Source: a virus (Duplodnaviria; Caudoviricetes). Taken from it: a DNA stretch of 42,006 nucleotides. How positions within the stretch are numbered: position 1 is the stretch's first letter; every line of letters begins with the position of its first letter. The DNA lies in IMG/VR virus record IMGVR_UViG_3300020045_021433, positions 1-42,006 of that record. The stretch is one strand, 5' to 3'. A program made the position numbers and the translations under genes. Positions 328 through 32,870 of the stretch are shown piece by piece. A model generated the notes under the pieces. The model saw nothing but the letters and a program-made list of their open reading frames with translations, was not told where the DNA came from and made no database searches.

Positions 328-1665
328 ATGAGTAAGCATTATAAAAATATCCACGTAGGAAAAGCAACTTTGGCAGTCAGTGGACTCGGAACTCCTAAAG
401 TTCCTCAAGCTATCAAAGTACAAATAGATCCTTCCAATGAAGAAATAACTGGTGAGTTGGTTCCTTGGGGTTCTAGCAACTTGTACCCACAGGATTTCTA
501 TGATAAAAAGTTTCTAAAAAACGGTGCGGCCGTTGGTGGTATGAATACTTTATCATCGACAACTTACGGGAATGGTTTCAATCTTTACAAAAAAGTCAGA
601 AACGAAACCACTCGAAAAATCGAACTCGAAGAGCAGCTTCTTTCTGACTTCCCGGACATCGATTTGTTTGTCGAGCAAAACCACCTCGACGAATTTTGGG
701 ATGCTAAAATAAAAGACCTCGCACTTTTTGAATTAGCTTTCACCGAGCACGTTCTTTCGGTCACTCAAGAAAGCATCACAGAAGTAAAACGCCATCAAAC
801 TGCACATTGCCGTTATGCCAAGATGGATGAAACGGGAACAATTCCTTATGTTTTCATAAACACCGACTGGAATACTAACAATCCAAAATTCACAGTTCCA
901 ATTCCTTACTTCGATAAAAGGAGGTTTACGACTGCACAAATAAAAGAGATCTGCAAAGCAAAGAAAATATTCAATTTTATTACAGATTCCAAGTACGCTT
1001 TCATTACAGAGAACTATTATCCAAAAGCTGGATGGCACGCTGTTGACCGTAACGGATGGATGGACGTGGCTAACTCAGTTCCCGAATTAAAGCAAGCATT
1101 GTTCGAAAACCAGATGCACTTTAAGTATATCGTTTATATTTCCGATTACTATTTCGAATCCTATTATAAAGAAGAGTGGGATGACTTCGACGCTGAGAAA
1201 CGCCAGAAAATGCGCGAAGACTTGGCCACAACTATTGACGAGCACATGTCCGGAAATAAAGCGAGTGGGCGTTCGTTAACTTCTCCCATCTTCGAAGAAA
1301 ACGGAAAATTTGTCGAAGGTATCAAAGTCGTGCCAATCGACAACAAACTCAAAGACGGCTCCTATCTTCCTGATGCTTCTGCTGCCAATTCGGAAATTCT
1401 TTTTGCCATGGGAGTGAATCCGGCAATAATTGGCGCAGGAACTCCGGGAGGTTCTAACCTTGGAGGCTCCGGTTCCAACATTCGAGAAGCCTACACAGTA
1501 CTTTCAGCAAGCCTAGTCCCAAAACGAATCTACGTTACTGATGATTGGTTGTTCTGGCGAAGCTTCAACAATTGGGACAGAGCTTTAATCGGGATGTTCG
1601 GCAGCGTAAACCTTACCACTTTGGACAAAAATCCAAGTGGCCAACAAAATATTTTAAACGGATAA
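328..1665 (+). CDS. Putative portal protein
   Basis: 445 aa; PWGxxNLYPQ near N-term and EILFAMGVNPAIIG...SGSNIREAY near C-term resemble Bacteroidota phage portals; follows the terminase in circular order. Confidence 0.65.
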   Translation: MSKHYKNIHVGKATLAVSGLGTPKVPQAIKVQIDPSNEEITGELVPWGSSNLYPQDFYDKKFLKNGAAVGGMNTLSSTTYGNGFNLYKKVRNETTRKIELEEQLLSDFPDIDLFVEQNHLDEFWDAKIKDLALFELAFTEHVLSVTQESITEVKRHQTAHCRYAKMDETGTIPYVFINTDWNTNNPKFTVPIPYFDKRRFTTAQIKEICKAKKIFNFITDSKYAFITENYYPKAGWHAVDRNGWMDVANSVPELKQALFENQMHFKYIVYISDYYFESYYKEEWDDFDAEKRQKMREDLATTIDEHMSGNKASGRSLTSPIFEENGKFVEGIKVVPIDNKLKDGSYLPDASAANSEILFAMGVNPAIIGAGTPGGSNLGGSGSNIREAYTVLSASLVPKRIYVTDDWLFWRSFNNWDRALIGMFGSVNLTTLDKNPSGQQNILNG

Positions 1666-1668
1666 CCT

Positions 1669-2619
1669 ATGAGACTCATCAATAATATCGAAGATTTAAA
1701 ACGACACATCATCGTTTCAGCAACTTTTGATTTTCAGAAAGTTTTACCATTTGCCAAACGTGTCGAGCGTAAAATAATCTTAGACCTCATTGGCCAAGAC
1801 CAGTACGATTCTATTGTAGTCCATACTTTCGTTCCGGAAGACACGGCTCCAATAAACCAGGTTAAGGAACTGCTCGAAGAAGCTGTGGCCAATTATTCTT
1901 TGCTTTTGGCAATGCCAACGATTAACATCTTAATCACAAATTCAGGAACCAAAACCTCCGAAAACAAAGAAGCCGTCAATGCTGACTGGAAGGACAAACG
2001 CGACCTGAACCGTTCGCTCTTGAAAACCTACAACGAAGCTCTAGACGATGCTTTCCAAATAATGGAAGAAAACGTTGCTGATTTCCCCGACTGGCAAACT
2101 TCAAAATACTATACAGTTTTCAAAGATTTATTGGTTCAGCAAACAATGACCTTCAATGATCATTTCAGCATCCAAAATAATCGCCAGACTTTCTGTGCGC
2201 TAAAGCCTTACATACGTGAAGTCGAAGATCAGTATTTCAAAGCGATGCTAGGAGCCGAAACGCTCGCCTTGATCAAAGCCAAATCCACTGAAGAAATAAT
2301 TATCGAAGCTCAGGAACTCGCACAAAAAGCCTGTGTAGCTTTTACAGTTGCCAAGGCTGCCATCACGGGAACTTTCGCTTTCACTGATAGTTCTTTCGTT
2401 ATCGCCTCAGATCAGTTGCCTTGGGAAAAACAAAGCGAACTTTCCAAAGAAGATCGCAATGATTTAAAGAAAGACCGACAACTGGCCGGAGAAGAATATC
2501 TCAAGTCCTTAAAAAAATTAGTGGTTGCCAATCCAACTCTTTTTCCTGCGTACCAGGATAAAACCGAAATTGGAATCACAGCAAAAATCATAAAGAAAAA
2601 ATCAGGTTTGTGGCTCTAA
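1669..2619 (+). CDS. Putative head-tail adaptor (DUF6712-like)
   Basis: 316 aa helical protein with two internally similar halves, directly after the portal. Confidence 0.5.
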   Translation: MRLINNIEDLKRHIIVSATFDFQKVLPFAKRVERKIILDLIGQDQYDSIVVHTFVPEDTAPINQVKELLEEAVANYSLLLAMPTINILITNSGTKTSENKEAVNADWKDKRDLNRSLLKTYNEALDDAFQIMEENVADFPDWQTSKYYTVFKDLLVQQTMTFNDHFSIQNNRQTFCALKPYIREVEDQYFKAMLGAETLALIKAKSTEEIIIEAQELAQKACVAFTVAKAAITGTFAFTDSSFVIASDQLPWEKQSELSKEDRNDLKKDRQLAGEEYLKSLKKLVVANPTLFPAYQDKTEIGITAKIIKKKSGLWL

Positions 2620-2624
2620 AAAGA

Positions 2625-2660
2625 TGTCCTTTTCAAAATTCAGTCGCAACCCTATTTTTG
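2625..2660 (+). promoter_or_regulatory. Putative late promoter TGTCCTTTT...TATTTTTG
   Basis: Same motif and 35-36 nt span at 12720, 33913 and 40934. Confidence 0.6.
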
Positions 2661-2676
2661 ATAAAAATTAAAACAA

Positions 2677-3219
2677 ATGCAAGTACAAAGAGTAATCACC
2701 GCTAACGGCATCGACGATATTAAACTCGTTGGCGAAACGGATTTAGAACGTCAGTTCATTAAGCAACTAGCCGAGGCGGGAACTCTTTCTTGCTTGAATC
2801 GTCAAGTGTCGGATTCTGTTTTGTTCAGACCTATTTCCGTGGCTTCTGAGATTAGCAGTTATACATCCAGTAATGGATCCATTCCTCGCTATAATTTTGA
2901 TGTTGTTCAAAACGCATCGCACACAATAGATCTCGTTTTCGACATCAATGACGTGCCTTTAGATCTTAATGATTTCTTAGCGATCAAACTCCAAGTAAAA
3001 CACAGCAAGTCAGCACCGCCAATCATAGATTTAGCCATAGGTTCAGGATTAGCAATTTCAGGCGTTGATTCTAATATTTTGAAAGCGACAATGACGGCCG
3101 CACAAACAAAACTATTGACTTGCGAATCCTATTACTACGATGTTCTAATGAGCAAAACAGATTTGAATAAATATTACTTAGAAGGAAAAATAACTACAAA
3201 AACCACAGCCACAAGATGA
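2677..3219 (+). CDS. Putative tail/baseplate-associated structural protein
   Basis: C-terminal beta-rich domain ending YYYDVLM...YLEGKIT typical of fibre attachment domains; overlaps the fibre gene (ATGA). Confidence 0.45.
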   Translation: MQVQRVITANGIDDIKLVGETDLERQFIKQLAEAGTLSCLNRQVSDSVLFRPISVASEISSYTSSNGSIPRYNFDVVQNASHTIDLVFDINDVPLDLNDFLAIKLQVKHSKSAPPIIDLAIGSGLAISGVDSNILKATMTAAQTKLLTCESYYYDVLMSKTDLNKYYLEGKITTKTTATR

Positions 3220-5339
3220 GCGATACAATAAATATCAAAGTTTACGAAAACACACCCGAAGGAATGCAAGCCGCAATAGCAGCTGCCGAAAATAGATTAG
3301 ATCAAAAGATTGACGATGCATTATTAGATAGCACCGCAATTGGCGATCCAACTATTCCCATCCCCGTAGACGTTACTGGAAATGCTCATTGTTTAGGAGT
3401 TGGTCCTGGTACTTATGCTAATTGGGGTGGGCTTGTAGTTCCTGCTAATAATACAGCTACTTTAAAAAGAATTGGTGGAGTATTTTATATGAGTTTGACC
3501 CTTATGGATTTGAGTGGGAAATTGAATGTTTCTGATGTTATAAATAGTTTGACTTCGGCGGAAACGGCAAAGGCTTTAAGTGCAGCACAAGGAAAGTTTT
3601 TGAATGAGAATAAAGCGAATATTACTTATGTTGATGCAGGTTTAGCTTTGAAATTAGAGGAAAAAGACTTATTAGAGCCTGACTTTTCAACAGATTACAA
3701 TACGGAAGATTTCTCTACTCTCACACTTCAAAATCCAGTTACAGGAGTTGATGCTTATGTAAATAAAGAGGCTAGAGTTACAATTGAGGGAGTTTTGTCC
3801 GCTATAACAGTAAAATCAAGCCAAGCAAGTGTTTTGGTTTTAAAATGTATAACTATCAGCGCGGGAGTCGTAACAGTACTTCATACTTTTGAAACTATAA
3901 CTTTGTTGTCAGGTATAAATACATATAGTATTGATGATAATTTTATACTACCGGTAGATTCTTATATTTCCGCATCGTCTGAACATATATACTATAATAA
4001 TAGCACTAATGGTAGTTTCTTAATAAGTGGATCTGCAACTGCTACTAATTCTCAAGTAAGAGTTTCGGTTAATTTTGAAATTACGACTTTAAAATTAGCT
4101 TACGATATAGAAACTAAAACGTCAGTCGATTTAAAATTATCTACAAAATTAGAAGTAATTGAAGGAGAGAAAAAAAACAACAATGTTGATTTTAGTGTTT
4201 TAACACTTCAAAACGGTGACACTGGTGATGTCTTTTACGTCAACAAAGAATCTAAAATTACAAGAGAAAGCAAGTTAAAAAAAATAACGGTCAAAGCATC
4301 AGGAAGTAACACTTTGAATTTAAAATGCATAAATATAAATGGAAATGTAGCTACTGTTTTACATACTTTTCCAGTAATAAATCTAATCGCAGGAACTAAT
4401 GATTACAATGTAGATTATGATTTTAATTTACCAGCTGGCTCTTATATTTCCGTTTCTTCTTATGTTATTTATTACAACAACACAACTAACGGAAGTTTTA
4501 GAGTTAATAATGATAACAACGTATCTGATTCTCCTGTAAGAGTTTCTGTTAATTTTGAAATTGTTGCTTTAGTTCCTGAACTCAACATTCTTCAAAAAGC
4601 ATTAATAGATAATCAAGTGCTGTTATACGGAACTTCAATTATGTCAAATGATTACCCTTGGTTTAAAAAATCATTAGAATCTATTACTGGAGCTGAAGTT
4701 TATAACGGAGGTTTTAGTGGAGCAACGGCTTCTCAACTTTGTGAAAATTCTAAACTGCAAAGAATATGGGACTATTATCCAAATAAAATTCTTCTTGAAA
4801 TGGGAGGGAATCAGGATGGTGCTATTAATTCTGTAGGCACATTTACAAATATAAACGGAGAGCCTGTAGTGACTGAACCGGATGCTTCTATTGATTATTT
4901 GGGAACTTATTATATTCAAGCTATAAGTTACGTTATTCAAAGAATTCTTCTGGAATATGAAAACTTTAGAGAAAGAGCTAATTTAACAGGTTTAGAAACA
5001 GAACTTGAAAAAGAAGCTAAAATCGATGCTGTAAAAAAAGTAGAATTGATTTTACTTTCTGGATTTCCACAAAAAAGATATAACGACGATTCGGAATTTT
5101 CCAAACCTTCTAATTGGAAAAGAAAAGAAGACGCAATTAAAGAGTGTGGATTGAAATATGGTGTGAAAGTTATAGATATTCAAGATTTATGTAAATACAA
5201 TATGACTTTAGAGCCATATTGGGCCCCCCCTACTGATCCATTAACTAATAATGGTCTTTATTTTATGGATGGTTTACACCCTAATAAATATGGCTATGAA
5301 TTAGTTTCAAGAAAGATTTGTGAAAGCAATAATTGGTAA
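3216..5339 (+). CDS. Tail fibre/receptor-binding protein with C-terminal SGNH/GDSL hydrolase
   Basis: Fibre-type motif NSLTSAETAKALSAAQGKFL; two tandem 125-aa repeats; SGNH blocks LYGTSI, GFSG, EMGGN, DGLHPN. Confidence 0.75.
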   Translation: MSDTINIKVYENTPEGMQAAIAAAENRLDQKIDDALLDSTAIGDPTIPIPVDVTGNAHCLGVGPGTYANWGGLVVPANNTATLKRIGGVFYMSLTLMDLSGKLNVSDVINSLTSAETAKALSAAQGKFLNENKANITYVDAGLALKLEEKDLLEPDFSTDYNTEDFSTLTLQNPVTGVDAYVNKEARVTIEGVLSAITVKSSQASVLVLKCITISAGVVTVLHTFETITLLSGINTYSIDDNFILPVDSYISASSEHIYYNNSTNGSFLISGSATATNSQVRVSVNFEITTLKLAYDIETKTSVDLKLSTKLEVIEGEKKNNNVDFSVLTLQNGDTGDVFYVNKESKITRESKLKKITVKASGSNTLNLKCININGNVATVLHTFPVINLIAGTNDYNVDYDFNLPAGSYISVSSYVIYYNNTTNGSFRVNNDNNVSDSPVRVSVNFEIVALVPELNILQKALIDNQVLLYGTSIMSNDYPWFKKSLESITGAEVYNGGFSGATASQLCENSKLQRIWDYYPNKILLEMGGNQDGAINSVGTFTNINGEPVVTEPDASIDYLGTYYIQAISYVIQRILLEYENFRERANLTGLETELEKEAKIDAVKKVELILLSGFPQKRYNDDSEFSKPSNWKRKEDAIKECGLKYGVKVIDIQDLCKYNMTLEPYWAPPTDPLTNNGLYFMDGLHPNKYGYELVSRKICESNNW
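3708..4562 (+). repeat. Intragenic domain duplication (3708-4082 and 4188-4562)
   Basis: DFSTLTLQN...VRVSVNFEI vs DFSVLTLQN...VRVSVNFEI, 480-nt period. Confidence 0.9.
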
Positions 5340-5415
5340 TTAATGAAAATCCATCTGCCAAAACTAACAGACACCATCATAGAAAAAGTGCTCGATAATT
5401 TAAACCTAATTAACA

Positions 5416-5700
5416 ATGGAATGCACGTATTGTTTTGAAACGGCTACTAAAATTCACAATTCAGAAGAGTTGTGTGATCGTCATTTTAAAATTTTATGTC
5501 CAGAACAATCTAAAACAAATCAATTGCAGGAAGTTCCAAAAAGTTATCGTGAAAAACGATTAAACAAAAGGTACACAAAACGGTTAACCAATTGCAAAAA
5601 CGATGAAGAATTTCAACAAATAATAATCGATTTCAAAGCTGATCTAGCAATCGTCGAAAAACAAAGCAGGTATTATAAAAATAGAGATAAAATAAAATGA
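5416..5700 (+). CDS. Hypothetical protein with N-terminal Cys/His (zinc-ribbon-like) motif
   Basis: CTYC...LCDRH; overlaps the holin start. Confidence 0.55.
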   Translation: MECTYCFETATKIHNSEELCDRHFKILCPEQSKTNQLQEVPKSYREKRLNKRYTKRLTNCKNDEEFQQIIIDFKADLAIVEKQSRYYKNRDKIK

Positions 5701-6200
5701 AAGAATTATTCCTAAAACCAATCATCAAGCCAATGGCGTTGTTAACTGTAATTCCAAATATGGCAATTGCTCCAAAAGTAGATTTAGAATCCGTTGTTTG
5801 GATTTTAGTTTGGTTATTTTTTGCAGATCTATTCACTGGTTTATTTGCTAGCTATTTCAAATGGAAAGAAACAGTACCAAAAGGAAAATATTTCTTTGGA
5901 CAATCACAAGGTTTTTCAAGTGACAAATTCAAAAAATGTTTTATTAAAGGAATGGTGTACACGGGGTTTCCTCTTCTCTTGTTAAAATTCCAACATGCAT
6001 TTTTAATAAAAAACATAAAATTTTCAACCGTATCCGATTCTGAATTTGATATAACAATTGTCTGTCTTTTGGTTTTTTGTGCAAACGAACTCTTTTCTAT
6101 CTTTTGGGAAAACCTGCCAGTTTGCGGTTTGAATCTACCAAAAGCAATCAAGAATCTAATTGTTGGAGTGAAAGATATCACTAACGAAATAAAACCATAA
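5697..6200 (+). CDS. Holin
   Basis: Several hydrophobic segments; ADLFTG and NELFSIFWEN motifs of holin-4-like families; directly upstream of the endolysin. Confidence 0.75.
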   Translation: MKELFLKPIIKPMALLTVIPNMAIAPKVDLESVVWILVWLFFADLFTGLFASYFKWKETVPKGKYFFGQSQGFSSDKFKKCFIKGMVYTGFPLLLLKFQHAFLIKNIKFSTVSDSEFDITIVCLLVFCANELFSIFWENLPVCGLNLPKAIKNLIVGVKDITNEIKP

Positions 6201-6202
6201 CT

Positions 6203-6748
6203 ATGATCTTCATCTCAGCCGGCCACAACCCAAACGGACTTAACCCAGATCCGGGAGCAATAGGAAACGGAAACCACGAAGCCGACTTAACCGTCGAGTT
6301 TAGAAACCTAGTTACAGCAATGCTACGAGCCAAAGGACTCGAAGTCATCACCGATAAAGATGATGAACGCCTTGGAACCTATCTCGAAAGAATCAAAACA
6401 GGTAATGGATCCGTTGTATTAGAATTTCATTTCGATGCAGCAGGAACTTCTACAGCCACAGGAACCACCGTTCTTATAGGTAACGATGCCGACCGTTTGG
6501 ACAAAGCTTTCGCAAAAGAACTAGTCGAAGCCTGTGCAACCACTTTGTCAATCAAAAATCGTGGAATAAAACCCGAATCCGAAAGTCACCGGGGCGGTCT
6601 TGGACTTATGCGCGAACAGGGAGCTGTTGCCTTGCTCGAAATTTGTTTCATTACCAACAAAGAAGATCTTCTCCAGTATCGAAATAATAAAATGTCATTG
6701 GCTTTTAAAATTGCTGAAATTGTAGAACGTTACGAAAAACTGATTTAA
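6203..6748 (+). CDS. Endolysin, N-acetylmuramoyl-L-alanine amidase (Amidase_3)
   Basis: ISAGH...DPGA...HEADL, EFHFDA, ALLEICFITN zinc amidase motifs. Confidence 0.92.
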   Translation: MIFISAGHNPNGLNPDPGAIGNGNHEADLTVEFRNLVTAMLRAKGLEVITDKDDERLGTYLERIKTGNGSVVLEFHFDAAGTSTATGTTVLIGNDADRLDKAFAKELVEACATTLSIKNRGIKPESESHRGGLGLMREQGAVALLEICFITNKEDLLQYRNNKMSLAFKIAEIVERYEKLI

Positions 6749-6798
6749 GTACAGAACCTTAGTACAGAACCTTAGTACAGAACCTTAGTACAGAACCT
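6748..6798. repeat. 13-bp tandem repeat AGTACAGAACCTT x about 4
   Basis: Three perfect copies plus a 12-bp copy between amidase and spanin. Confidence 0.95.
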
Positions 6799-6810
6799 AA
6801 TTCAATTCTT

Positions 6811-7362
6811 ATGAAAAAAATATTTGCAATCTTATTATTTTGTCTAGCATTAGCATTCCTAATGCTTTTCTCTTCCTGCGGTGCTGCCAAATCCGACAAA
6901 ACCAAAACCAACGAAGAAGTAAAAACCGAAAATTCCAATAATTACACTTCGGATAAAAAGGAAGAATCCAACGTAAAGAAAACCGAGAACACCATCATTG
7001 ATGACAAAAACGAAACCGTAATCGAAGAAACGAACTATGAGCCTATCGACAACACAAAACCTGCGAGTATTATTGATCCCGATGGGAAAGAAACCAAACT
7101 CAATAATTCGAAGAAAACCACTCGGAAAACCACTAAAAAAAACAATACCAAAACCGATAATTCCAAAAAATCCGAAGAATTCCACAAATCGGAATTATCG
7201 GAACAATCGGAATCCAAAGGAAAAACCGAAGGAAAAAAAGCAGGATTAGCAGTTAAACGAGAACGTTCGGCTTGGTCAATGTGGAATCTGCTTTGGTTGT
7301 TAATTCCTGTTGGAATTTATTTGGTTTGGAAAAAGTATAGTGATAAAATTTGGTGGATCTAA
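6811..7362 (+). CDS. Putative unimolecular spanin (lipoprotein with C-terminal TM helix)
   Basis: Signal peptide with lipobox FSSC, K/T/N/E-rich linker, C-terminal WNLLWLLIPVGIYLVW; third gene of the lysis cassette. Confidence 0.75.
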   Translation: MKKIFAILLFCLALAFLMLFSSCGAAKSDKTKTNEEVKTENSNNYTSDKKEESNVKKTENTIIDDKNETVIEETNYEPIDNTKPASIIDPDGKETKLNNSKKTTRKTTKKNNTKTDNSKKSEEFHKSELSEQSESKGKTEGKKAGLAVKRERSAWSMWNLLWLLIPVGIYLVWKKYSDKIWWI

Positions 7363-7538
7363 TGGAAGCAAAACTCAGAACCCTAAAACTAAGAAAAGCA
7401 CGCCTTTTCGAAAACATCGAAATGCTCTCCGAAGTAAACGAATGTACATTTACTGAATTTGGTAAACTCGAAGCCGAAATAATGAAACTCGAAAAAAATA
7501 TTGTTCGCGATACCAAAAACACACTCGATGAGAATTGA
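7362..7538 (+). CDS. Hypothetical coiled-coil protein
   Basis: ATG overlaps the spanin stop (TAATG). Confidence 0.55.
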   Translation: MEAKLRTLKLRKARLFENIEMLSEVNECTFTEFGKLEAEIMKLEKNIVRDTKNTLDEN

Positions 7539-8367
7539 TTTTAAAATAGCGCAACATTGGAATGATCTGACCGAGTGGCAAATTCGAGCCATTGGCCGTT
7601 TTATGTTTAATAACAGAAATGAGCAGGTCGAAACTAAACGTTTCAAACAAATCGTGCTTTCTATTCTGATCGTGCCAAAACCAACCTTCAGGAATATTAT
7701 CAAATCTGTGGTTTTATTATCAAATGTGACTTTTTCGGAACTGGAGAAATACACAGATTTTGTCTTTGATCAAAAAGAATTATTGACTCGATTCCCTAAC
7801 CAAATCAAAATAGGTCGCTGGCCATTTCGTAAAATTGTTTATGGTCCGGCTCCAAGATTGGCAAACGTAACCATCGAAGAGCTTTCCTATGCCGATACTT
7901 TTTATTATAAATGGATAACCGAAAATAACCCAGACGATTTGCATCGACTCACGGCTATTTTGTACCGTCCCACAGCTTGGAACCGACGACCTTCTTCCGA
8001 AGACAGGCGAATTCCGTTTTCCAGTCTTTCGTTAGAAAATAATTCTCGCATTACCGATGCGATTCCGCTTCCGGTTAAGTTTATGATTGCACACGCGTAT
8101 TCAGGCTGTCGCCAAAACTTTATCAATCGACATCCAAACGTATTTCCACAACGAAAACTAGCTGAAGGCGAAGAAGAAAAAACGCCAACGAAACCAAAAC
8201 CATACCAACCATTTTCAAAAATCATAGATTCCTTCGCGATGGATGAAGTTCAAATTTTTGGGAATCATCAAGCAGTTGAGAAGGTTTTTGCACCCAAATT
8301 CCTTTCTATTTACGAAGAATCAATCATCAGGGAACGTCAAAAAGAACGAGCTCGTAACACAAAATAA
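7528..8367 (+). CDS. Hypothetical morphogenesis protein (possible tail assembly chaperone)
   Basis: ATG at 7528; WNDLT and LTAILYRP motifs; late-gene context. Confidence 0.55.
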   Translation: MRIDFKIAQHWNDLTEWQIRAIGRFMFNNRNEQVETKRFKQIVLSILIVPKPTFRNIIKSVVLLSNVTFSELEKYTDFVFDQKELLTRFPNQIKIGRWPFRKIVYGPAPRLANVTIEELSYADTFYYKWITENNPDDLHRLTAILYRPTAWNRRPSSEDRRIPFSSLSLENNSRITDAIPLPVKFMIAHAYSGCRQNFINRHPNVFPQRKLAEGEEEKTPTKPKPYQPFSKIIDSFAMDEVQIFGNHQAVEKVFAPKFLSIYEESIIRERQKERARNTK

Positions 8368-8369
8368 TT

Positions 8370-8573
8370 ATGGAAGAGCAATTAAAACTAGCAATCGAAT
8401 ATTTAAAAATAAGGTCTATAAAAACCAATAAAAAAAGCCTTCCTAATGTTCTTAAAATACAGCACGCAGTTTGTCCTATATTTGAAGTTGAAGCAGTATT
8501 AAATATGGTGTTGACCTTAGAATTTGAGGATTTTTATAATGAATTTAAAAAAGAATATCCTAACACTAAATAA
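8370..8573 (+). CDS. Hypothetical protein
   Basis: Tightly packed ORF with TAATTATG junctions on both sides. Confidence 0.55.
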   Translation: MEEQLKLAIEYLKIRSIKTNKKSLPNVLKIQHAVCPIFEVEAVLNMVLTLEFEDFYNEFKKEYPNTK

Positions 8574-8575
8574 TT

Positions 8576-9091
8576 ATGGCCAGAGTATTATCCTTTCAGA
8601 AAGTAGATGACTTTTTCGCAGAATTAGCCACAAAACATGTCGATATCAAAGATTATTGCAGTACTTCGGTTCAGGAGTTAGCCAATAAAATCGCCTCAGT
8701 CGATGGATTGGGATCGCCTTTCTTGGTGTTTTTCGACTATTACGGACACCTAGAAGGCAAAGAACAGCGCACGTTCAATAATAGATCCTTGGCTTTCTCC
8801 ATTCTTTACACCGGAATCAAAACCGATGATTATCCTGGTCAAAGATTGGCTGTAACCAATGCTGAAGAAATAGGCCTAGAAGTTTTGTCCAGGATAAATG
8901 TTCAAAGCAAAATGCAAACCATTGGCTGGCTTTACAACAATTTCGACAAAAACACGGTAACAATGGATGAAGTAATCTCCGAAGGTTCCGATGGTTTTTA
9001 CGGAATGGAGTTTCATTTTGATCTGAAAGTACTTGAACCTTTAGTCGTAACTCCCGCAAAATGGAGCGATAGTAATTTATTTTGTGTCTAA
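8576..9091 (+). CDS. Putative tail terminator/completion protein
   Basis: 171 aa alpha/beta protein in tail region; function inferred from size and position. Confidence 0.4.
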   Translation: MARVLSFQKVDDFFAELATKHVDIKDYCSTSVQELANKIASVDGLGSPFLVFFDYYGHLEGKEQRTFNNRSLAFSILYTGIKTDDYPGQRLAVTNAEEIGLEVLSRINVQSKMQTIGWLYNNFDKNTVTMDEVISEGSDGFYGMEFHFDLKVLEPLVVTPAKWSDSNLFCV

Positions 9092-9159
9092 ATGAGGTTT
9101 CCCGTAAAGAACAACTCTTTTGATTAATTTTATTGCTGACCAATTTAATATAAAATAAC

Positions 9160-9366
9160 ATGAAGAATGATTTGCCTCAAATTATCAGACCACTGATAGA
9201 ATCTACTAACTCTTTACGAGAACACCGAATGGCTTTGCACGAAATGTTTGCTCTAGCAATATCGAACATTCCAGATGATGAAACCGAAAACTTCACCGCC
9301 CGGAAACTCAAATCCACCTATCTCGCTTTGTGTGAGCTGATGGAAAATATACAGGAAACACAATGA
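9160..9366 (+). CDS. Small helical protein, paralogue A (of 11054-11335)
   Basis: 24 of 38 core residues identical to the 11054 protein. Confidence 0.8.
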   Translation: MKNDLPQIIRPLIESTNSLREHRMALHEMFALAISNIPDDETENFTARKLKSTYLALCELMENIQETQ

Positions 9367-9370
9367 AATT

Positions 9371-9399
9371 AAAAACCACTCGTAATTGAGTGGTTTTTT
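9371..9399 (+). terminator. Intrinsic terminator
   Basis: AAAAACCACTC-GTAATT-GAGTGGTTTTTT. Confidence 0.8.
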
Positions 9400-9430
9400 C
9401 TTATATTTACAACTCACTAAAAAATGGATT

Positions 9431-9940
9431 ATGAAAAAAATTATTTTGTTATTGTTGTTGGTTTCGGGGTTTGTGAATGCACAGGAATGTGATTTTAAAA
9501 TAAATGAGTTTGATGCTTTTACTAAATTAAAAAAGACTGAAACAAAACGGCAAGTTGTTGCTGTAACTACATCTACCGGCATTTATTTTTCTTTTTTTAA
9601 AAACAACTATACTTATCTTAAGGTAGGTTATCATACATCAGGAATAAAATCAATTGTTGTGGGTACTGATAATAAAATTAGTTTGATGTTACTAGACGAC
9701 TCCCTTATTGAATTATCTCCGTTAGAAATATATATGGGAGAATTTAATTCTTTAAATGATACTGATATAACTGTAAAATATATAATTACTATTGATGATA
9801 TAAAGAAAATTAGAAGTGTTGGTATTAAAAAAATTAGATTTAATTCTACTAAATATTATTATGATTTTGACGTGAAAAAAGAAAAATGGATTGAAAAATT
9901 AAATAATAATATTGATTGTTTTATTAAAGAAACTAACTAA
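9431..9940 (+). CDS. Exported moron protein (signal peptide), possible superinfection exclusion
   Basis: MKKIILLLLLVSGFVNA-Q signal peptide; very AT-rich; start reassigned to ATG 9431. Confidence 0.7.
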   Translation: MKKIILLLLLVSGFVNAQECDFKINEFDAFTKLKKTETKRQVVAVTTSTGIYFSFFKNNYTYLKVGYHTSGIKSIVVGTDNKISLMLLDDSLIELSPLEIYMGEFNSLNDTDITVKYIITIDDIKKIRSVGIKKIRFNSTKYYYDFDVKKEKWIEKLNNNIDCFIKETN

Positions 9941-10044
9941 TGACCTACATTCCCAGATACAAAAATCCAAAAATAAGAAATTGGTTCTTTCGAGTCCTGA
10001 TTGCAATGATCTTGATTGCGGCAATAAAAAAACTCCTATCGTGA
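9940..10044 (+). CDS. 34-aa basic/hydrophobic peptide
   Basis: MTYIPRYKNPKIRNWFFRVLIAMILIAAIKKLLS; ATG overlaps previous stop. Confidence 0.45.
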   Translation: MTYIPRYKNPKIRNWFFRVLIAMILIAAIKKLLS

Positions 10045-10129
10045 TGATAGGAGTTTTTTTTATCGGGGCAGATGTGCCCCGATATTTGTAATCTTGGCGA
10101 GGAGAATTATCCTCGCCAAGATTACAAAT
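10026..10129. terminator. Three abutting perfect hairpins, first is a bidirectional terminator
   Basis: Stems of 15, 10 and 20 bp at 10026-10060, 10061-10084, 10084-10129 between convergent genes. Confidence 0.8.
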
Positions 10130-10658
10130 CCATTTTAGTTTGATTGTTATTTGCTTTCCATTCTTCAAAAGTTGTTTTTCTAAAAACATCTCGTTCAGTT
10201 CTGATTTCCCTCAAAAGTTTTTCAGCATTTTTGAAATGATTTCGAGCTTCAACTTCCTTATCTACAAAATCATTTAGTCTTCTTTCCTTTTCTTCTATAA
10301 AAACAGCGTGCTCTGTGAAATAATTATAAAGAGCATCATAACATAAGTTTTTGTAAACTTTCAATGCTTCTCTAATTTCTTCTTTTACACTTTTAGATGA
10401 AATTCCAAATAACCATCCTAAAACATATTTTAATGGAATGCAGGACATTTTATATTCTTTTCCATCTGCTCCAGTTGTGGGGCAGAGCTCCATAACTGAA
10501 CATAAAATATCGTCATCTTTCATTTTTTGTAATTGACCGGAATAATCAATTCCAAGTGCTTCACAAATTGGTTTTACAGGTACAAATTTTTGTCCTGATT
10601 CGTCGATTACAATTACAATTCCTTGATTGTTGATTGTCGAAATTAATTCTGTACTCAT
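10122..10658 (-). CDS. Phage antirepressor (P22 Ant N-terminal domain)
   Basis: FVPVKPICEALGIDYSGQLQK...GADGKEYKMSCIPLKYVLGWLFGI. Confidence 0.88.
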   Translation of the reverse strand: MSTELISTINNQGIVIVIDESGQKFVPVKPICEALGIDYSGQLQKMKDDDILCSVMELCPTTGADGKEYKMSCIPLKYVLGWLFGISSKSVKEEIREALKVYKNLCYDALYNYFTEHAVFIEEKERRLNDFVDKEVEARNHFKNAEKLLREIRTERDVFRKTTFEEWKANNNQTKMDL

Positions 10659-10671
10659 AATAAATTGTTTT

Positions 10672-10775
10672 TAAAAGAAAACCCCTAAAGGCCGCCACAG
10701 CACTTTAAGGGTTTCTTATTGGTAAATAATTACCATATATTTTACATAGTGTGACGGTACTACAGTACAAATATA
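10672..10775 (-). promoter_or_regulatory. Antirepressor promoter and attenuator-like leader RNA
   Basis: TATATTTG (minus strand, 10768-10775); leader CCGTCACA complementary to loop TGTGGCGG of a U-tailed hairpin before the ATG. Confidence 0.6.
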
Positions 10776-10896
10776 CATTAATCTATGGATAAACAATACG
10801 TTTTATAATAATTTATCAATTAATCTATGTATATAGTGATTATTTCGCAAATTTTTTTGGGGTATTTGCACTATTGTATTATTTAATAAACTACTT

Positions 10897-11040
10897 TAGC
10901 TTTGCGAAACCATTTAAAACAGAAACATTATGTTTCAACAAATTCAGTTAAATAATCCACCCACAGCATCGAAGTTCGGAGTAAGACCGAATATCTTCAA
11001 GTTTTTCTTGGTTTCGCAGTCTTTGTTGTGGGCTTATTTA
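10897..11040 (+). ncRNA. Promoter plus structured CI/C4-like antisense RNA 1
   Basis: TAGCTTTG -7 box; stem CCCACAGCA/TGTTGTGGG, inner hairpin, bulge TCTTGGTTTCGCA complementary to 10903-10912 and 11055-11067. Confidence 0.6.
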
Positions 11041-11091
11041 AAAATTCTCAAAAATGCGAAACCAAGAGAACCAAAACGAGCTCACGCTTGA
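10930..11091 (+). CDS. Possible 53-aa leader ORF running through RNA 1
   Basis: MFQQIQLNNPPTASKFGVRPNIFKFFLVSQSLLWAYLKILKNAKPREPKRAHA; overlaps the 11054 start out of frame. Confidence 0.3.
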   Translation: MFQQIQLNNPPTASKFGVRPNIFKFFLVSQSLLWAYLKILKNAKPREPKRAHA

Positions 11092-11335
11092 GCAAGCAAT
11101 TCTACCAGTAGTAGATTGCAAAATCAACTTCCGTAACCAACGAAAGTTGCTTCACGAAATGTTTACTTTAGCCGTATCTAATGCTCCAGATGATGAGTCT
11201 GATAACTGGACGGCGAAACAAATCACTCCCTTTTATTTGGCTTTGTGCCAGTTATTGGAAAACCTTGATGATATTGACCAAGTTCACGCGGACAATATTA
11301 TTATGTGTATGGATAATTTAACAAAAAAACATTAA
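11054..11335 (+). CDS. Small helical protein, paralogue B
   Basis: LHEMFTLAVSNAPDDESDNWTA...YLALCQLLEN shared with 9160-9366. Confidence 0.8.
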   Translation: MRNQENQNELTLEQAILPVVDCKINFRNQRKLLHEMFTLAVSNAPDDESDNWTAKQITPFYLALCQLLENLDDIDQVHADNIIMCMDNLTKKH

Positions 11336-11361
11336 CCCCAATTTATTAATGGGGGAATACC

Positions 11362-11515
11362 TATATTTGCACTGACCAATCATTATGCATACGAAGAGTA
11401 CTCCTTGTTAAGATTCTTAACACGGGAGTTCTCAGGTTTCGGGTAGCGGGAAAAAAAACCGTCCGACTTCATTCTTCGTGTGTGATTGGTCAAGCCGTAA
11501 AGGGGATTCCCCTGT
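11362..11515 (+). ncRNA. Promoter plus structured RNA 2
   Basis: TATATTTG -7 box; 5' TGACCAATCA..CATACGAAGA pairs with TCTTCGTGTG-TGATTGGTCA; internal hairpins 11395-11433, 11439-11466, 11501-11513. Confidence 0.6.
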
Positions 11516-11537
11516 TTTGGATTTTAAACAATTTATT

Positions 11538-11783
11538 ATGGATATACCTATTTTAGATTACAAACCAGAAGTCAAAAGACTCATTTCAGAGAACTACGAA
11601 CCGGCTGATGTTTTATCGAAAGAATTTAAAAAAACCACTTTTGAACTCCTTGTCGGTTTTTCGAGTATTCTTCCACCTAATTCTATTGATGAAAATTTAC
11701 TGTATGAAGTTCTCACGGAAATGGGTTTCGAACCAAAAGAAGAAGATCCATTGGTTTTCTTTTGGTATTTTAGAAGGAAATAG
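11538..11783 (+). CDS. Hypothetical protein
   Basis: ATG 11538 after an A/T-rich initiation region; followed by terminator. Confidence 0.7.
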   Translation: MDIPILDYKPEVKRLISENYEPADVLSKEFKKTTFELLVGFSSILPPNSIDENLLYEVLTEMGFEPKEEDPLVFFWYFRRK

Positions 11784-11813
11784 AAAATAATTCACTTATA
11801 AGTTAACTTTCAC

Positions 11814-11835
11814 CACGCTTTCGGGCGTGTTTTTT
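11814..11835 (+). terminator. Intrinsic terminator
   Basis: CACGC-TTTCGG-GCGTG-TTTTTT. Confidence 0.7.
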
Positions 11836-11891
11836 ATGCTTTAAAGTCAATAAAATCGAGCCAAATGTTAAAGTTTTAAAATAATTAAAAA

Positions 11892-11939
11892 ATAATATAC
11901 CAAACTTGGTATATTATATAAATTAACGTCGTATATTTG
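11892..11939 (+). promoter_or_regulatory. Palindromic operator overlapping a promoter
   Basis: ATAATATACCAA-AC-TTGGTATATTAT (11892-11917) then TATATTTG (11932-11939). Confidence 0.7.
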
Positions 11940-12019
11940 TACAAGAGTTAAGGAAGTGATTCACACGGCAAACTTTAAAAAGGAGATCGGCAACTTCACA
12001 ACAAACGGCAAAAATTAAA

Positions 12020-12364
12020 ATGAAAACTTTAGTATTAAATTCAATCACAAAAAAAGCTTCTAAAAACTTTGAAAATAACGTTTCAAAATTATTACCTGAA
12101 GGAGTAAATGAAATTTATCTATCCTCTTGTGGAATGGAAAGAGTTGGAGCAGGTTCATATAATTATTTTTTAGAATTTAAAATTAACGATATTGAATATT
12201 TAAAATTAAAAAAGTTTACCCATAGTTCTCCTGCTTGGGATGAATGGAAAGATATTGAGGCAGGTACAAGAAAGCACGATAACTTTAATAAATCAGTTGC
12301 TTTAATGATCTTAGAAGATTGTAAAAATGAAATTGAAGAATATTTAACAGAAGAAAATGAGTAA
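12020..12364 (+). CDS. Hypothetical protein
   Basis: 114 aa, AT-rich, first gene of a two-gene operon. Confidence 0.7.
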   Translation: MKTLVLNSITKKASKNFENNVSKLLPEGVNEIYLSSCGMERVGAGSYNYFLEFKINDIEYLKLKKFTHSSPAWDEWKDIEAGTRKHDNFNKSVALMILEDCKNEIEEYLTEENE

Positions 12365-12671
12365 TCAAAATCAAAACAAAAACAAAAACGAGCAATGGAT
12401 GTTGCTCGTTTTACTTCTCGATGAAATTAGACAGGAAAAAAAGGTATCAATCAATGAAATTGCTTTAAGATCAGAAATGCTACAAGGTCACGTTTCACGT
12501 TTTTTCTCTTGCAAATTTGAACCCAAACTTTCTACTTTTCTAAAAATTGCCAGAGCAATCAAGGTAAATTTTTTCTTTGAAGATCAGGAAGACAAATCAG
12601 ATCTAAACCAATGCTTCGAACGCGCAATGGAAAGTTTAGGAAGGCGAGTAGATAAATTACCAAAAAATTAA
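12357..12671 (+). CDS. XRE-family HTH regulator
   Basis: IRQEKKVSINEIALRSEMLQGHVSRFFSCKFEPKLSTFLKIARAI. Confidence 0.85.
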   Translation: MSNQNQNKNKNEQWMLLVLLLDEIRQEKKVSINEIALRSEMLQGHVSRFFSCKFEPKLSTFLKIARAIKVNFFFEDQEDKSDLNQCFERAMESLGRRVDKLPKN

Positions 12672-12692
12672 TCAACCTACAAGTTGATTTTT

Positions 12693-12718
12693 AACCACTC
12701 TCCCCGAGTGGTTTTTTT
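12693..12718 (+). terminator. Intrinsic terminator
   Basis: AACCACTC-TCCCC-GAGTGGTTTTTTT. Confidence 0.8.
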
Positions 12719-12719
12719 A

Positions 12720-12754
12720 TGTCCTTTTGCCAAACCCCACAAATCCCGAATTTG
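12720..12754 (+). promoter_or_regulatory. Putative late promoter
   Basis: TGTCCTTTT...CGAATTTG restarts the tail operon after the island. Confidence 0.55.
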
Positions 12755-12771
12755 CATCAAAATTCAAGGAT

Positions 12772-13254
12772 ATGGCTACTACAGATTTCGAAGCAGAAGA
12801 AAAGAAAATAGGCACAGCCGCAGGAAAGGCATTGACAGCTTCTTTTCAGAATCAAATAAAAAAAATGTTTGATCGTCGTTCTGGCAATTTAGAAAAAACA
12901 AATGTTAGACCTCGTTACAAAGAGGGGCGTCTTGATCGCCTGGTTATTTCTTCTCCAAAATATTCATTCACCACGCATTACGGATCTGACAAAAAAGGCG
13001 ATACACCCGAAACTACTCGAAAAAGTGCAGAAGTTCGAAGTTTTGCCCGCCATTTAGAAAATTCAGTAATGGATCACCAAGTCAAAGCCCATACAAGAGC
13101 CGGAGGAACCGTTCAGGCTCACATCAAAGGAATCGATTACCGAGCAACAAATCATATTGCGAAAGCTTTGAAAGCTACTAACGCTCTGGAAGTGTTGGGA
13201 ACTCAGCTAGGAAATAATCGCGCAATTAAAATTCTTTCATCATTTGATTGGTAA
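12772..13254 (+). CDS. Basic structural protein (possible neck/tail completion)
   Basis: RRSGNL and HYGS motifs; precedes tape measure; ATG 12772. Confidence 0.5.
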   Translation: MATTDFEAEEKKIGTAAGKALTASFQNQIKKMFDRRSGNLEKTNVRPRYKEGRLDRLVISSPKYSFTTHYGSDKKGDTPETTRKSAEVRSFARHLENSVMDHQVKAHTRAGGTVQAHIKGIDYRATNHIAKALKATNALEVLGTQLGNNRAIKILSSFDW

Positions 13255-21553: not shown

Positions 21554-21755
21554 TTGACACAAATTTGACACAGACTTTTTATTAAAAACTCCCGAAGCCC
21601 TTTGTGTGCTTGGTTTTTTGGGAGTTCTAGCAGAGAGGAAGGGATTTTCTTTTACTAATATTTAAGAAAATAAATTTCATAACTCACTGATTGTCAACAC
21701 TATTTTATTTTTAAAAAGGGGTTTTTTAATGGTTTTTGACACAAATTTGACACAG
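21554..21755. mobile_element. attP: tRNA-Ser 3'-end core flanked by arm-type repeats
   Basis: Core 21629-21646 reads AATCCCTTCCTCTCTGCT on minus; 20-bp direct repeat TTGACACAAATTTGACACAG at 21554 and 21736; IHF-like site 21680-21692. Confidence 0.8.
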
Positions 21756-21788
21756 GTCAATGCTTCTAATTACCATTAAATAAAGGTC

Positions 21789-32394: not shown

Positions 32395-32870
32395 GTCAGT
32401 AATTAAAATCTGGACAAACACTATGCAATTCCTAAATGCAGCCATCAGTCAGTAATTAAAATTACCCCCGCACCCCCAATAGTAAAAAGTTATCGCCAAG
32501 ATGTGGAACAGTGGAGCTGTGGAACCTAATGTTCGAGATCTATCCGGGGTTAGTGCGAATAGAATCAAAAATTAATTTCAAATTTTCATTTTTTTTTGGT
32601 TTTCCCCCGCACCCCCAATTGGAAAAAAGTTTATGCAAGAGAGAGTGTGAAAAATATTGACAAAAAACGGTTCCACAGTTCCACAGTTCCACAATTTTTT
32701 TTTAATAGTATATAAGTATATAATAATCAAATAATTACATTAAAATTTCAATGTTTTCAATTTGTGGAACTTGTGGAACTCTATTGTAACAGTTCCACAA
32801 ATTCCATCAAGTTCCACGATACTTTTTTATTTAACTGCCTGATTTTCAGAATGTGGAACTGTGGAACTAA
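32395..32870. repeat. Putative replication origin with TGTGGAAC iterons
   Basis: Ten perfect octamers in both orientations, AT-rich core, IHF-like sites, 15- and 16-bp direct repeats. Confidence 0.75.

Follow-up and report, generated by a model that had tools for sequence, protein, structure and literature searches.

In this study, we report a leader RNA (RNA 2) of a temperate phage whose antisense stretch, the address a*, is complementary to the translation start of a small gene (gene A) lying upstream of it. From the sequences compared, this complementarity is real, conserved and partly co-evolving. Given that the address matches the gene A start and that both change together in some relatives, RNA 2 likely silences gene A at a distance, and we assign a probability of about 0.62 to the repression of gene A translation in trans. 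A trans-acting silencer of gene A had been proposed in a first-pass annotation of this DNA. In its favor, 7 of 11 loci conserve the target, and RNA and target co-change in two lineages, while 3 or 4 of the 11 keep the RNA without a good target; the repression itself is what we infer from these data.

The window, that is, the whole stretch of DNA analyzed (42,006 nucleotides), is a 42 kb virus record that is 99% complete. It represents a temperate phage of Flavobacterium type that encodes an integrase, a primase, a portal protein, a holin, an endolysin and a tape measure protein, and its relatives are found in Flavobacterium bernardetii and in a Flavobacteriales MAG. Two conserved genes (8576-9091, hereafter gene 8576, and 12727-13254) bound a variable cassette (Table 1). 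It holds gene A (9160), a cargo gene and, encoded on the minus strand, a P22_AR_N antirepressor, together with two RNA-gene units (RNA 1 ahead of gene B at 11054 and RNA 2 ahead of gene C at 11538) and two more genes. Portal, lysis and unnamed genes form a + strand run from 328 to 9091, and gene A is placed at the end of this late run. No + strand terminator-like site was found between 7400 and 9160 in a scan covering 7400-12800, and no conserved promoter was identified ahead of gene A (a promoter-like box lies within 1.3 kb upstream in 4 of 11 loci, at unrelated distances). Both results fit the read-through from the late operon into gene A claimed at first pass, which is plausible. In addition, inspection by eye revealed a terminator hairpin behind each of the 12 gene A copies and, therefore, gene A and RNA 2 would be on separate transcripts.

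The products of genes A and B share 48% identity over 62 aa and belong to a family with 26 cluster representatives, modeled as a helical hairpin (pLDDT 86). None of genes A, B, and C matched a Pfam or PHROG family. The fold search with the A/B family gave no match (best Z 5.4), which is no proof of a new fold. The term paralogue, used at first pass for gene A, holds with respect to gene B but not to gene C, the gene located behind RNA 2. Gene C is predicted to encode a winged helix. Among the closest predicted structures were C-terminal portions of VapE-like proteins, at a TM of ~0.65, which is below the bar for naming. Gene C had no Foldseek match at E<=0.001 and no detectable similarity to the primase-helicase of the phage itself.

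Table 1. Features of the RNA 2 cassette and its surroundings (positions in the window)
Feature	Positions	Strand	Remarks
Imperfect palindrome or small hairpin	9094..9108	+	Contains a copy of CCGTAAAG; just past the gene 8576 stop
Target box 1	9137..9144	+	In the gene A leader; probably left over from the start of an ancestral, longer B-type gene
Target box over the gene A ATG	9158..9170	+	13 pairs, one G-U
Gene A	9160..9366	+	68 aa; unnamed helical family; paralogue of gene B
Bidirectional terminator-like hairpin	9371..9398	+	Parts the gene A message from RNA 2
RNA 1	10904..11032	+	Sister element, same design, other address; a1 10904-10912, a* 11005-11018; predicted to be aimed in cis at the gene B start
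Gene B	11054..11335	+	93 aa; paralogue of gene A; predicted target of RNA 1
Promoter -7 box, TAnnTTTG type	11362..11369	+	Kept in 13/13 aligned homologues; predicted +1 ~11374
a1	11373..11398	+	5' self-target pairing with a* (rod, state I); two helices, paired to 94% and 90%, with double-sided changes in 3 and 4 pairs
b0:b* hairpin	11396..11433	+	State I; b* = 11424-11433
Internal hairpin P2	11439..11466	+	Common to both folds
a*	11466..11494	+	Antisense address complementary to a1 and to the gene A start region
b1 and T-rich run	11502..11518	+	b1 (11502-11511) is the state II partner of b*; 91.5% paired, 4/10 pairs changed on both sides
Gene C	11538..11783	+	81 aa; predicted winged helix resembling the C-terminus of VapE-like proteins; start lacks an address in the window
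Terminator-like hairpin	11814..11829	+	Ends the RNA 2-gene C unit

The duplex of 13 nt over the ATG at 9160 described in the first-pass annotation was reproduced: 11469-11481 is complementary to 9158-9170 over its whole length, with a single G-U pair in place of a Watson-Crick pair. Its second box is likewise exact, with 11485-11492 fully complementary to 9137-9144, and both boxes fit, in the bipartite order proposed, into one antiparallel duplex with a 12-nt loop in the target. When the 57 gene starts listed in the window genome were ranked, the address (11466-11494, with limits chosen after the fold and the finding had been seen) paired best with the 9160 start region (-27.8 kcal/mol, rank 1/57; others -10.8 +/- 3.2, z -5.4), and 0 of 5000 dinucleotide shuffles were as good. 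Among 8390 sliding windows on both strands, this pairing was surpassed only by the opposite strand of the address itself and by the 5' end of the same RNA. The rank of the gene A start as top target held for the address stretch and for the 5'-trimmed core, which in two-strand folding placed 9160 first of 57 (-20.9 versus -14.6 for the next), but not for the folded full-length RNA, with which 9160 was outside the top 6 of 57. It must also be considered that the 13-nt box is partly coding sequence, which counts against trans-repression. In contigs of relatives, the differences listed include no substitution in box 1 or in 9160-9170 and one G-U-compatible change at 9159; three of these contigs cover the leader and they were not counted as evidence.

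Further loci were gathered by anchoring on the A/B family, gene 8576, gene C and RNA patterns, and duplicates were counted once (L045, L038, and L022 as L004; L012 and L033 as L037; L006, L031, and L035 as L005; L007, L023, and L036 as L003; L025 as L034). Co-occurrence, a check suggested at first pass, was observed, with RNA 2 and an upstream gene A present together, 250-2500 nt apart, in 11 distinct loci including the window. A twelfth gene A copy, in L042, is on a contig that stops before the RNA. The genus and family searches yielded 2/401, 4/401, and 1/401 genomes. No match to RNA 2 or gene B was obtained in 50,697 phage records, and none in the single-protein locus search. Likewise, no sequencing run was listed as containing the RNA. 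Of 21 RNA-pattern matches, 14 were rejected by eye as not being RNA 2, and 2 further matches together with 11 genome matches were discarded because they did not match model R1 at the pattern site.

With respect to the target, 7 of the 11 loci beat the shuffles, 1 was weak and 3 lacked it. In those 7, no more than 3 of 2000 shuffles reached the energy of the own pair; the pairing was poor in L046, L005, L040, and L039 (80, 126, 554, and 986 of 2000 shuffles as good, respectively), all four of which still keep the RNA. Box 1 was located at positions -20 to -26 in 9 of 12 gene A leaders versus 0 of 254 other ORF starts; its own identity of 90% is partly a product of construction, since it was picked by pattern. 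The 20 nt upstream of it are only 45% alike across leaders. In L039 (8195-8494), the N-terminus of gene A is 30 residues longer and its start resembles box 1 with two G-U pairs, the total pairing being at chance.

Addresses that change between phages together with their targets, as in P4 CI and P1 C4, were found in L044, in L004 and in nine elements in which the RNA stands side by side with its gene. In L044, three boxes are altered on both the RNA and the target. Its own pair reached -25.0 kcal/mol. Combining its RNA with the targets of other loci gave -7.1 to -17.0, and combining its target with the RNAs of other loci gave -12.5 to -21.2. The gene A leader of L044 has not been copied from its a1. 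The own pair of L004 (-21.0 kcal/mol) includes an 8-pair match over the ATG that is unlike the common one, and in this locus RNA 2 lies alone between two terminators with no gene behind it. Cognate pairs were better than permuted pairs (1565/200000; 14916/200000 without L044) among loci that are related to each other, and the signal of co-evolution comes mostly from one locus, L044. Since few of the deep forks are settled by the gene 8576 tree, at most two independent address changes were counted.

The RNA had been taken at first pass to begin at 11362. As 11362-11369 is the -7 box of the promoter, its start is placed near 11374, according to the Bacteroidota promoter consensus and spacing described in PMC6847099; RNA 2 has its own Bacteroidota promoter. 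The region folds far better than shuffled sequences (z -5.85). The self-pairing alternative noted earlier was borne out, the 8-mer of box 1 (9137-9144) being present also at the 5' end of the RNA (11373-11380) and two exclusive, covarying folds being detected. In state I, a rod formed by a1:a* and b0:b*, 91% of the cells were paired and 11 of 33 pairs had changed on both sides (13 homologues), a value that 0 of 500 shuffles reached. In state II (b*:b1), 92% were paired and 5 of 16 pairs had changed on both sides (13 homologues), and 6-10 of 500 shuffles reached this covariation. Each of the 13 trimmed cores adopts the b*:b1 pairing, but taken by itself the core is no stabler than shuffles (z -0.7). 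State II is thus only moderately supported, because related sequences can pass such shuffles without having a structure. Alternatively, the b1 region folds as a small terminator-like hairpin (11501-11513).

The energetics of these folds bear directly on how RNA 2 could act. In the whole transcript, the rod is favored over state II by 23 kcal/mol, which counts against the switch. To open a*, 13-32 kcal/mol must be spent in the whole RNA, compared with 8-15 in the 5'-trimmed core. The net binding to gene A was unfavorable with the full-length RNA in 10 of the 10 loci tested and with the core in 3 of 10, which also counts against repression. Since the address is buried in the full-length RNA, an action on gene A needs the 5' part to be removed or occupied, and we infer such a step by analogy. 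In the mechanism that we propose, RNA 2 would be a promoter-driven leader RNA with two folds, similar to P4 CI and P1 C4, the likely processed core of which would pair with the leader and start codon of gene A. The new transcript would fold as a rod hiding the address. Once the 5' 50 nt had been removed, possibly by an RNase P-like cut in analogy to CI and C4, or once a second copy had occupied a1, b*:b1 could close and expose the address. The core would then bind gene A from -24 to +11, where Flavobacterium ribosomes are expected to need unpaired, A-rich RNA, as taken from PMC6847099. The same core could also bind a1 of new RNA 2 transcripts, favoring termination before gene C, and RNA 2 probably controls this gene as well. 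The gene C start offers no downstream address site (-7.6 kcal/mol); sites of this kind were found for RNA 1, L008, and L047. Additionally, the need for silencing a gene of the late operon by an RNA with a housekeeping-type promoter is not obvious, which counts against the proposal.

The sister element RNA 1 carries a different address. In the window, the energies of RNA 2 on the starts of genes A, B, and C were -27.8, -7.9, and -7.6 kcal/mol, and those of RNA 1 were -13.9, -24.4, and -6.0, respectively; the two addresses are orthogonal. Regarding the promoter of RNA 1, the box homologous to those of relatives (10892-10899) has one mismatch, and a perfect TAnnTTTG is found 5 nt downstream (10897-10904), the use of which would remove most of the 5' self-target of RNA 1 (region 10892-10912). 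Leader RNAs of similar design with other addresses were observed in distant phages with gene C homologues (31-52% identity), namely in L063 (5200-5390), L068 (5827-6000), and L059 (5627-5790); those of L063 and L059 were tested and that of L068 was assessed by eye only. In L059, the upstream paralogue was rejected as target of the RNA (-9.7 versus -26.1 kcal/mol for the next gene).

The side-by-side elements also inform on the origin of the distant arrangement. In L008, from F. bernardetii, the same RNA with the same address directly precedes a gene of the A/B family and pairs with its ATG, and in 9 of the 9 side-by-side elements checked, L008 included, the address is matched to the start codon of the gene behind it (-8.1 to -25.3 kcal/mol). 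Because the L008 RNA both precedes and addresses an A/B-family gene, the distant wiring was probably derived, as far as sequence comparison can tell, from a side-by-side cassette. The gene A product lacks the 7 N-terminal residues seen in that of gene B, and box 1 precedes the gene A ATG by 7-8 codons (in frame in L004 and L046), suggesting that box 1 would be the old start of a B-type ancestor. An ancestral cassette with RNA and gene side by side, as in L008, may have been split or duplicated; gene A may then have moved to the end of the late operon and restarted 7-8 codons downstream, with the pairing being extended over the new ATG.

This history opens the reading that RNA 2 is only a cis attenuator of gene C and that the match to gene A was left over from the ancestral cassette. 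The position and address of the RNA in L008, the location of box 1 where a gene of B type with 7-8 more codons would start, the loss or weakness of the target in 4 of 11 loci and the burial of the address in the full RNA agree with it. However, box 1 persists while the flanking spacer has decayed to 45% identity, and RNA and target co-change in L044 and L004. Moreover, L008 pairs over only ~9 nt and the distant forms add boxes over the new ATG, an extension that argues for selection and against a mere relic. We consider this reading unlikely.

Repression of gene A by RNA 2 would have its closest precedents in the antisense immunity RNAs of phages P4 and P1. CI of P4 is described as processed from a leader and pairing with seqA upstream and seqC downstream (PMC4825925), and C4 of P1 as blocking translation around the ribosome binding site and setting the specificity of immunity (PMC12197685; PMC8198154; PMC8201110). 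Both are reported as RNase P substrates (PMC5499578; PMC3632133). RNA 2 shares with CI an antisense stretch in a leader, a complementary upstream site, alternative folds and a probable need of processing (PMC4825925; PMC5499578), and, like seqA, its a1 is a complementary site upstream in the same transcript. In contrast to CI, the second target of RNA 2 is on another message 2.3 kb upstream and not downstream in its own transcript, the host and promoter are of Bacteroidota, Rfam gave no match and the target family was unrelated by any search. The likeness to C4 of P1/P7 (RF01695) and c4-2 (RF02944) consists of a phage-specific address, the translation start of a small gene as target (PMC12197685), a split pairing and a putative closed stem with inner hairpins. 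It differs from C4 in that no icd-ant operon follows RNA 2 and the P22_AR_N antirepressor is on the opposite strand with its own leader. C4 is listed in Proteobacteria and their phages (PMC2864571), and c4-2 is named as a distant homologue (PMC5737381).

Two other RNAs resemble RNA 2 in part. IsrK of the Salmonella prophage Gifsy-1 has a short leader isoform that is described as acting in trans on the long one and switching folds (PMC4825925), but it activates translation of its own long form, whereas RNA 2 is predicted to repress a remote gene. The Bacteroidales-1 motif (RF01693) is a Bacteroidota RNA located right behind a consensus promoter, with ends that look complementary in the consensus (PMC2864571, supplement file 6); RNA 2, however, gave no Rfam hit, and the covariance model of RF01693 had no match at E<=10. 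In the whole window, no Rfam family reached its gathering score and only unrelated families at chance level appeared at E<=10. RF01695 (cut-off 45 bits) was found in 0 of 4 records at E<=10, and RF02944 (cut-off 41 bits) was over its cut-off in 0 of 4, with one 9.7-bit match in G004 and none in G000. In the literature, the titles and opening lines of abstracts that were searched contained no description of RNA 2 or of a CI/C4-type RNA in Flavobacterium phages. The design class is long known from P1 and P4, and the variation here would be the rewired, trans form of such antisense immunity RNAs.

The comparison with P1 also leads to a reading, compatible with repression in trans, in which gene A is a growth inhibitor, similar to icd or kil, and RNA 2 its antitoxin, as in a split type I toxin-antitoxin system that would stabilize the prophage or exclude related phages with the same address. 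The A/B family occupies the place of icd of P1, which is described as a division inhibitor behind C4 (PMC8198154; PMC8201110), addresses differ between phages, and RNA 2 shares with the RNAs of type I systems its antisense match to the translation start of a gene for a small protein. Nevertheless, neither sequence nor fold searches connected gene A with a toxin or with Icd, and the RNA is kept in loci that have lost the target. This function appears improbable.

A different role for the same pairing would be that of a decoy, the abundant late message with its gene A leader soaking up RNA 2 so that read-through into gene C occurs only once late transcription has begun. The data on conservation and co-change fit it equally, gene A is at the end of the late + strand run without a conserved promoter, and the start of gene C, having no address in the window, would have the fold switch as its only means of control. 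For a pure decoy, a pairing over the ATG would be superfluous, yet the ATG is spanned, also in both lineages with changed addresses, and in L004 no gene follows the RNA, leaving nothing to derepress in cis. We give little credit to a decoy as the main role.

Repression of gene A and titration by its message could also be parts of one circuit. We tentatively consider, as a possibility well short of even odds, that an immunity RNA of CI/C4 type has turned into a free regulator linking two units: it would silence the paralogue at the end of the late operon, and the late message would titrate the RNA and release the winged-helix gene. Together with RNA 1, there would be two orthogonal, address-coded circuits on two paralogues, an intermediate from cis leader to trans sRNA. 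If true, the step from a cis antisense leader to a trans-encoded small RNA would be visible in one phage family, with both states preserved naturally (side by side in L008; apart in the window, L044, and L004) along with losses (L005, L040, and L039). It would also provide an RNA-target pair open to direct testing, with compensatory variants supplied by nature, in a phylum where ribosomes do without Shine-Dalgarno pairing, and the natural orthogonal addresses would be possible regulatory parts for Flavobacterium.

It is very improbable that the shared 8-mer is instead a protein-binding DNA site, for example of the gene C winged helix, at the RNA start and before gene A, with the complementarity only following from the a1:a* pairing: box 1 is identical to the first bases of RNA 2 and is the most conserved part of the target, and gene C has a predicted DNA-binding fold, but the target changes are G-U tolerant or compensated (L037 and L044) and the ATG boxes match a* better than they resemble a1.

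A further shared motif, CCGTAAAG, had been noted at 9102 and 11495. Both positions are right, but the motif is not part of the duplex, as the two copies are identical on the same strand and not complementary. It was rejected as a second target box because it is a same-strand motif of a TTACGG-N4/5-CCGTAA-type palindrome that is also found without the RNA. The copy at 9102 is the right arm of an imperfect palindrome, which with a variable middle follows gene 8576 in 7 of the 12 gene A loci. CCGTAAAG is missing in L044, L004, and L046, all of which keep the target, and L056, with neither gene A nor the RNA, has a near-perfect palindrome. The latter (~5915-5937) lies directly between the gene 8576 homologue and gene C and is a candidate binding site for the gene C winged helix. 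In the window, a short ORF from the gene 8576 stop (9092-9127) covers the palindrome; it begins with M-R-x-x-V-K in 6 of the 7 palindrome loci and its length varies. An RNA hairpin, a DNA site and a leader peptide are the candidates for this stretch.

Other traits of the genome were observed around the cassette. The antirepressor gene (10658-10122) has a promoter and a structured leader at 10660-10775 on the minus strand. The 5' end of this leader resembles its own start-codon region, and it is probably a third leader switch; its value of -26 overlaps its own query and was discounted. Past this gene, at 10061-10129, there are two adjoining strong inverted repeats (10 and 20 or more pairs) like short chromosomal repeat elements. 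The slot after the gene A terminator (9431-9940 in the window) holds swappable cargo genes, also in L004, L005, L037, L040, and L046, which have signal-peptide-like starts behind a common promoter-like box, as in a moron hotspot. Many copies of the motifs TGTGGAAC/GTTCCACA, in both orientations, are present at 32500-32870, past the replication genes, and resemble the iterons of an origin. Finally, a direct repeat of ~20 nt, TTGACACAAATTTGACACAG, occurs twice upstream of the integrase gene (21560-21760), flanking a fragment similar to a tRNA 3' end, and these may be attachment or arm sites.
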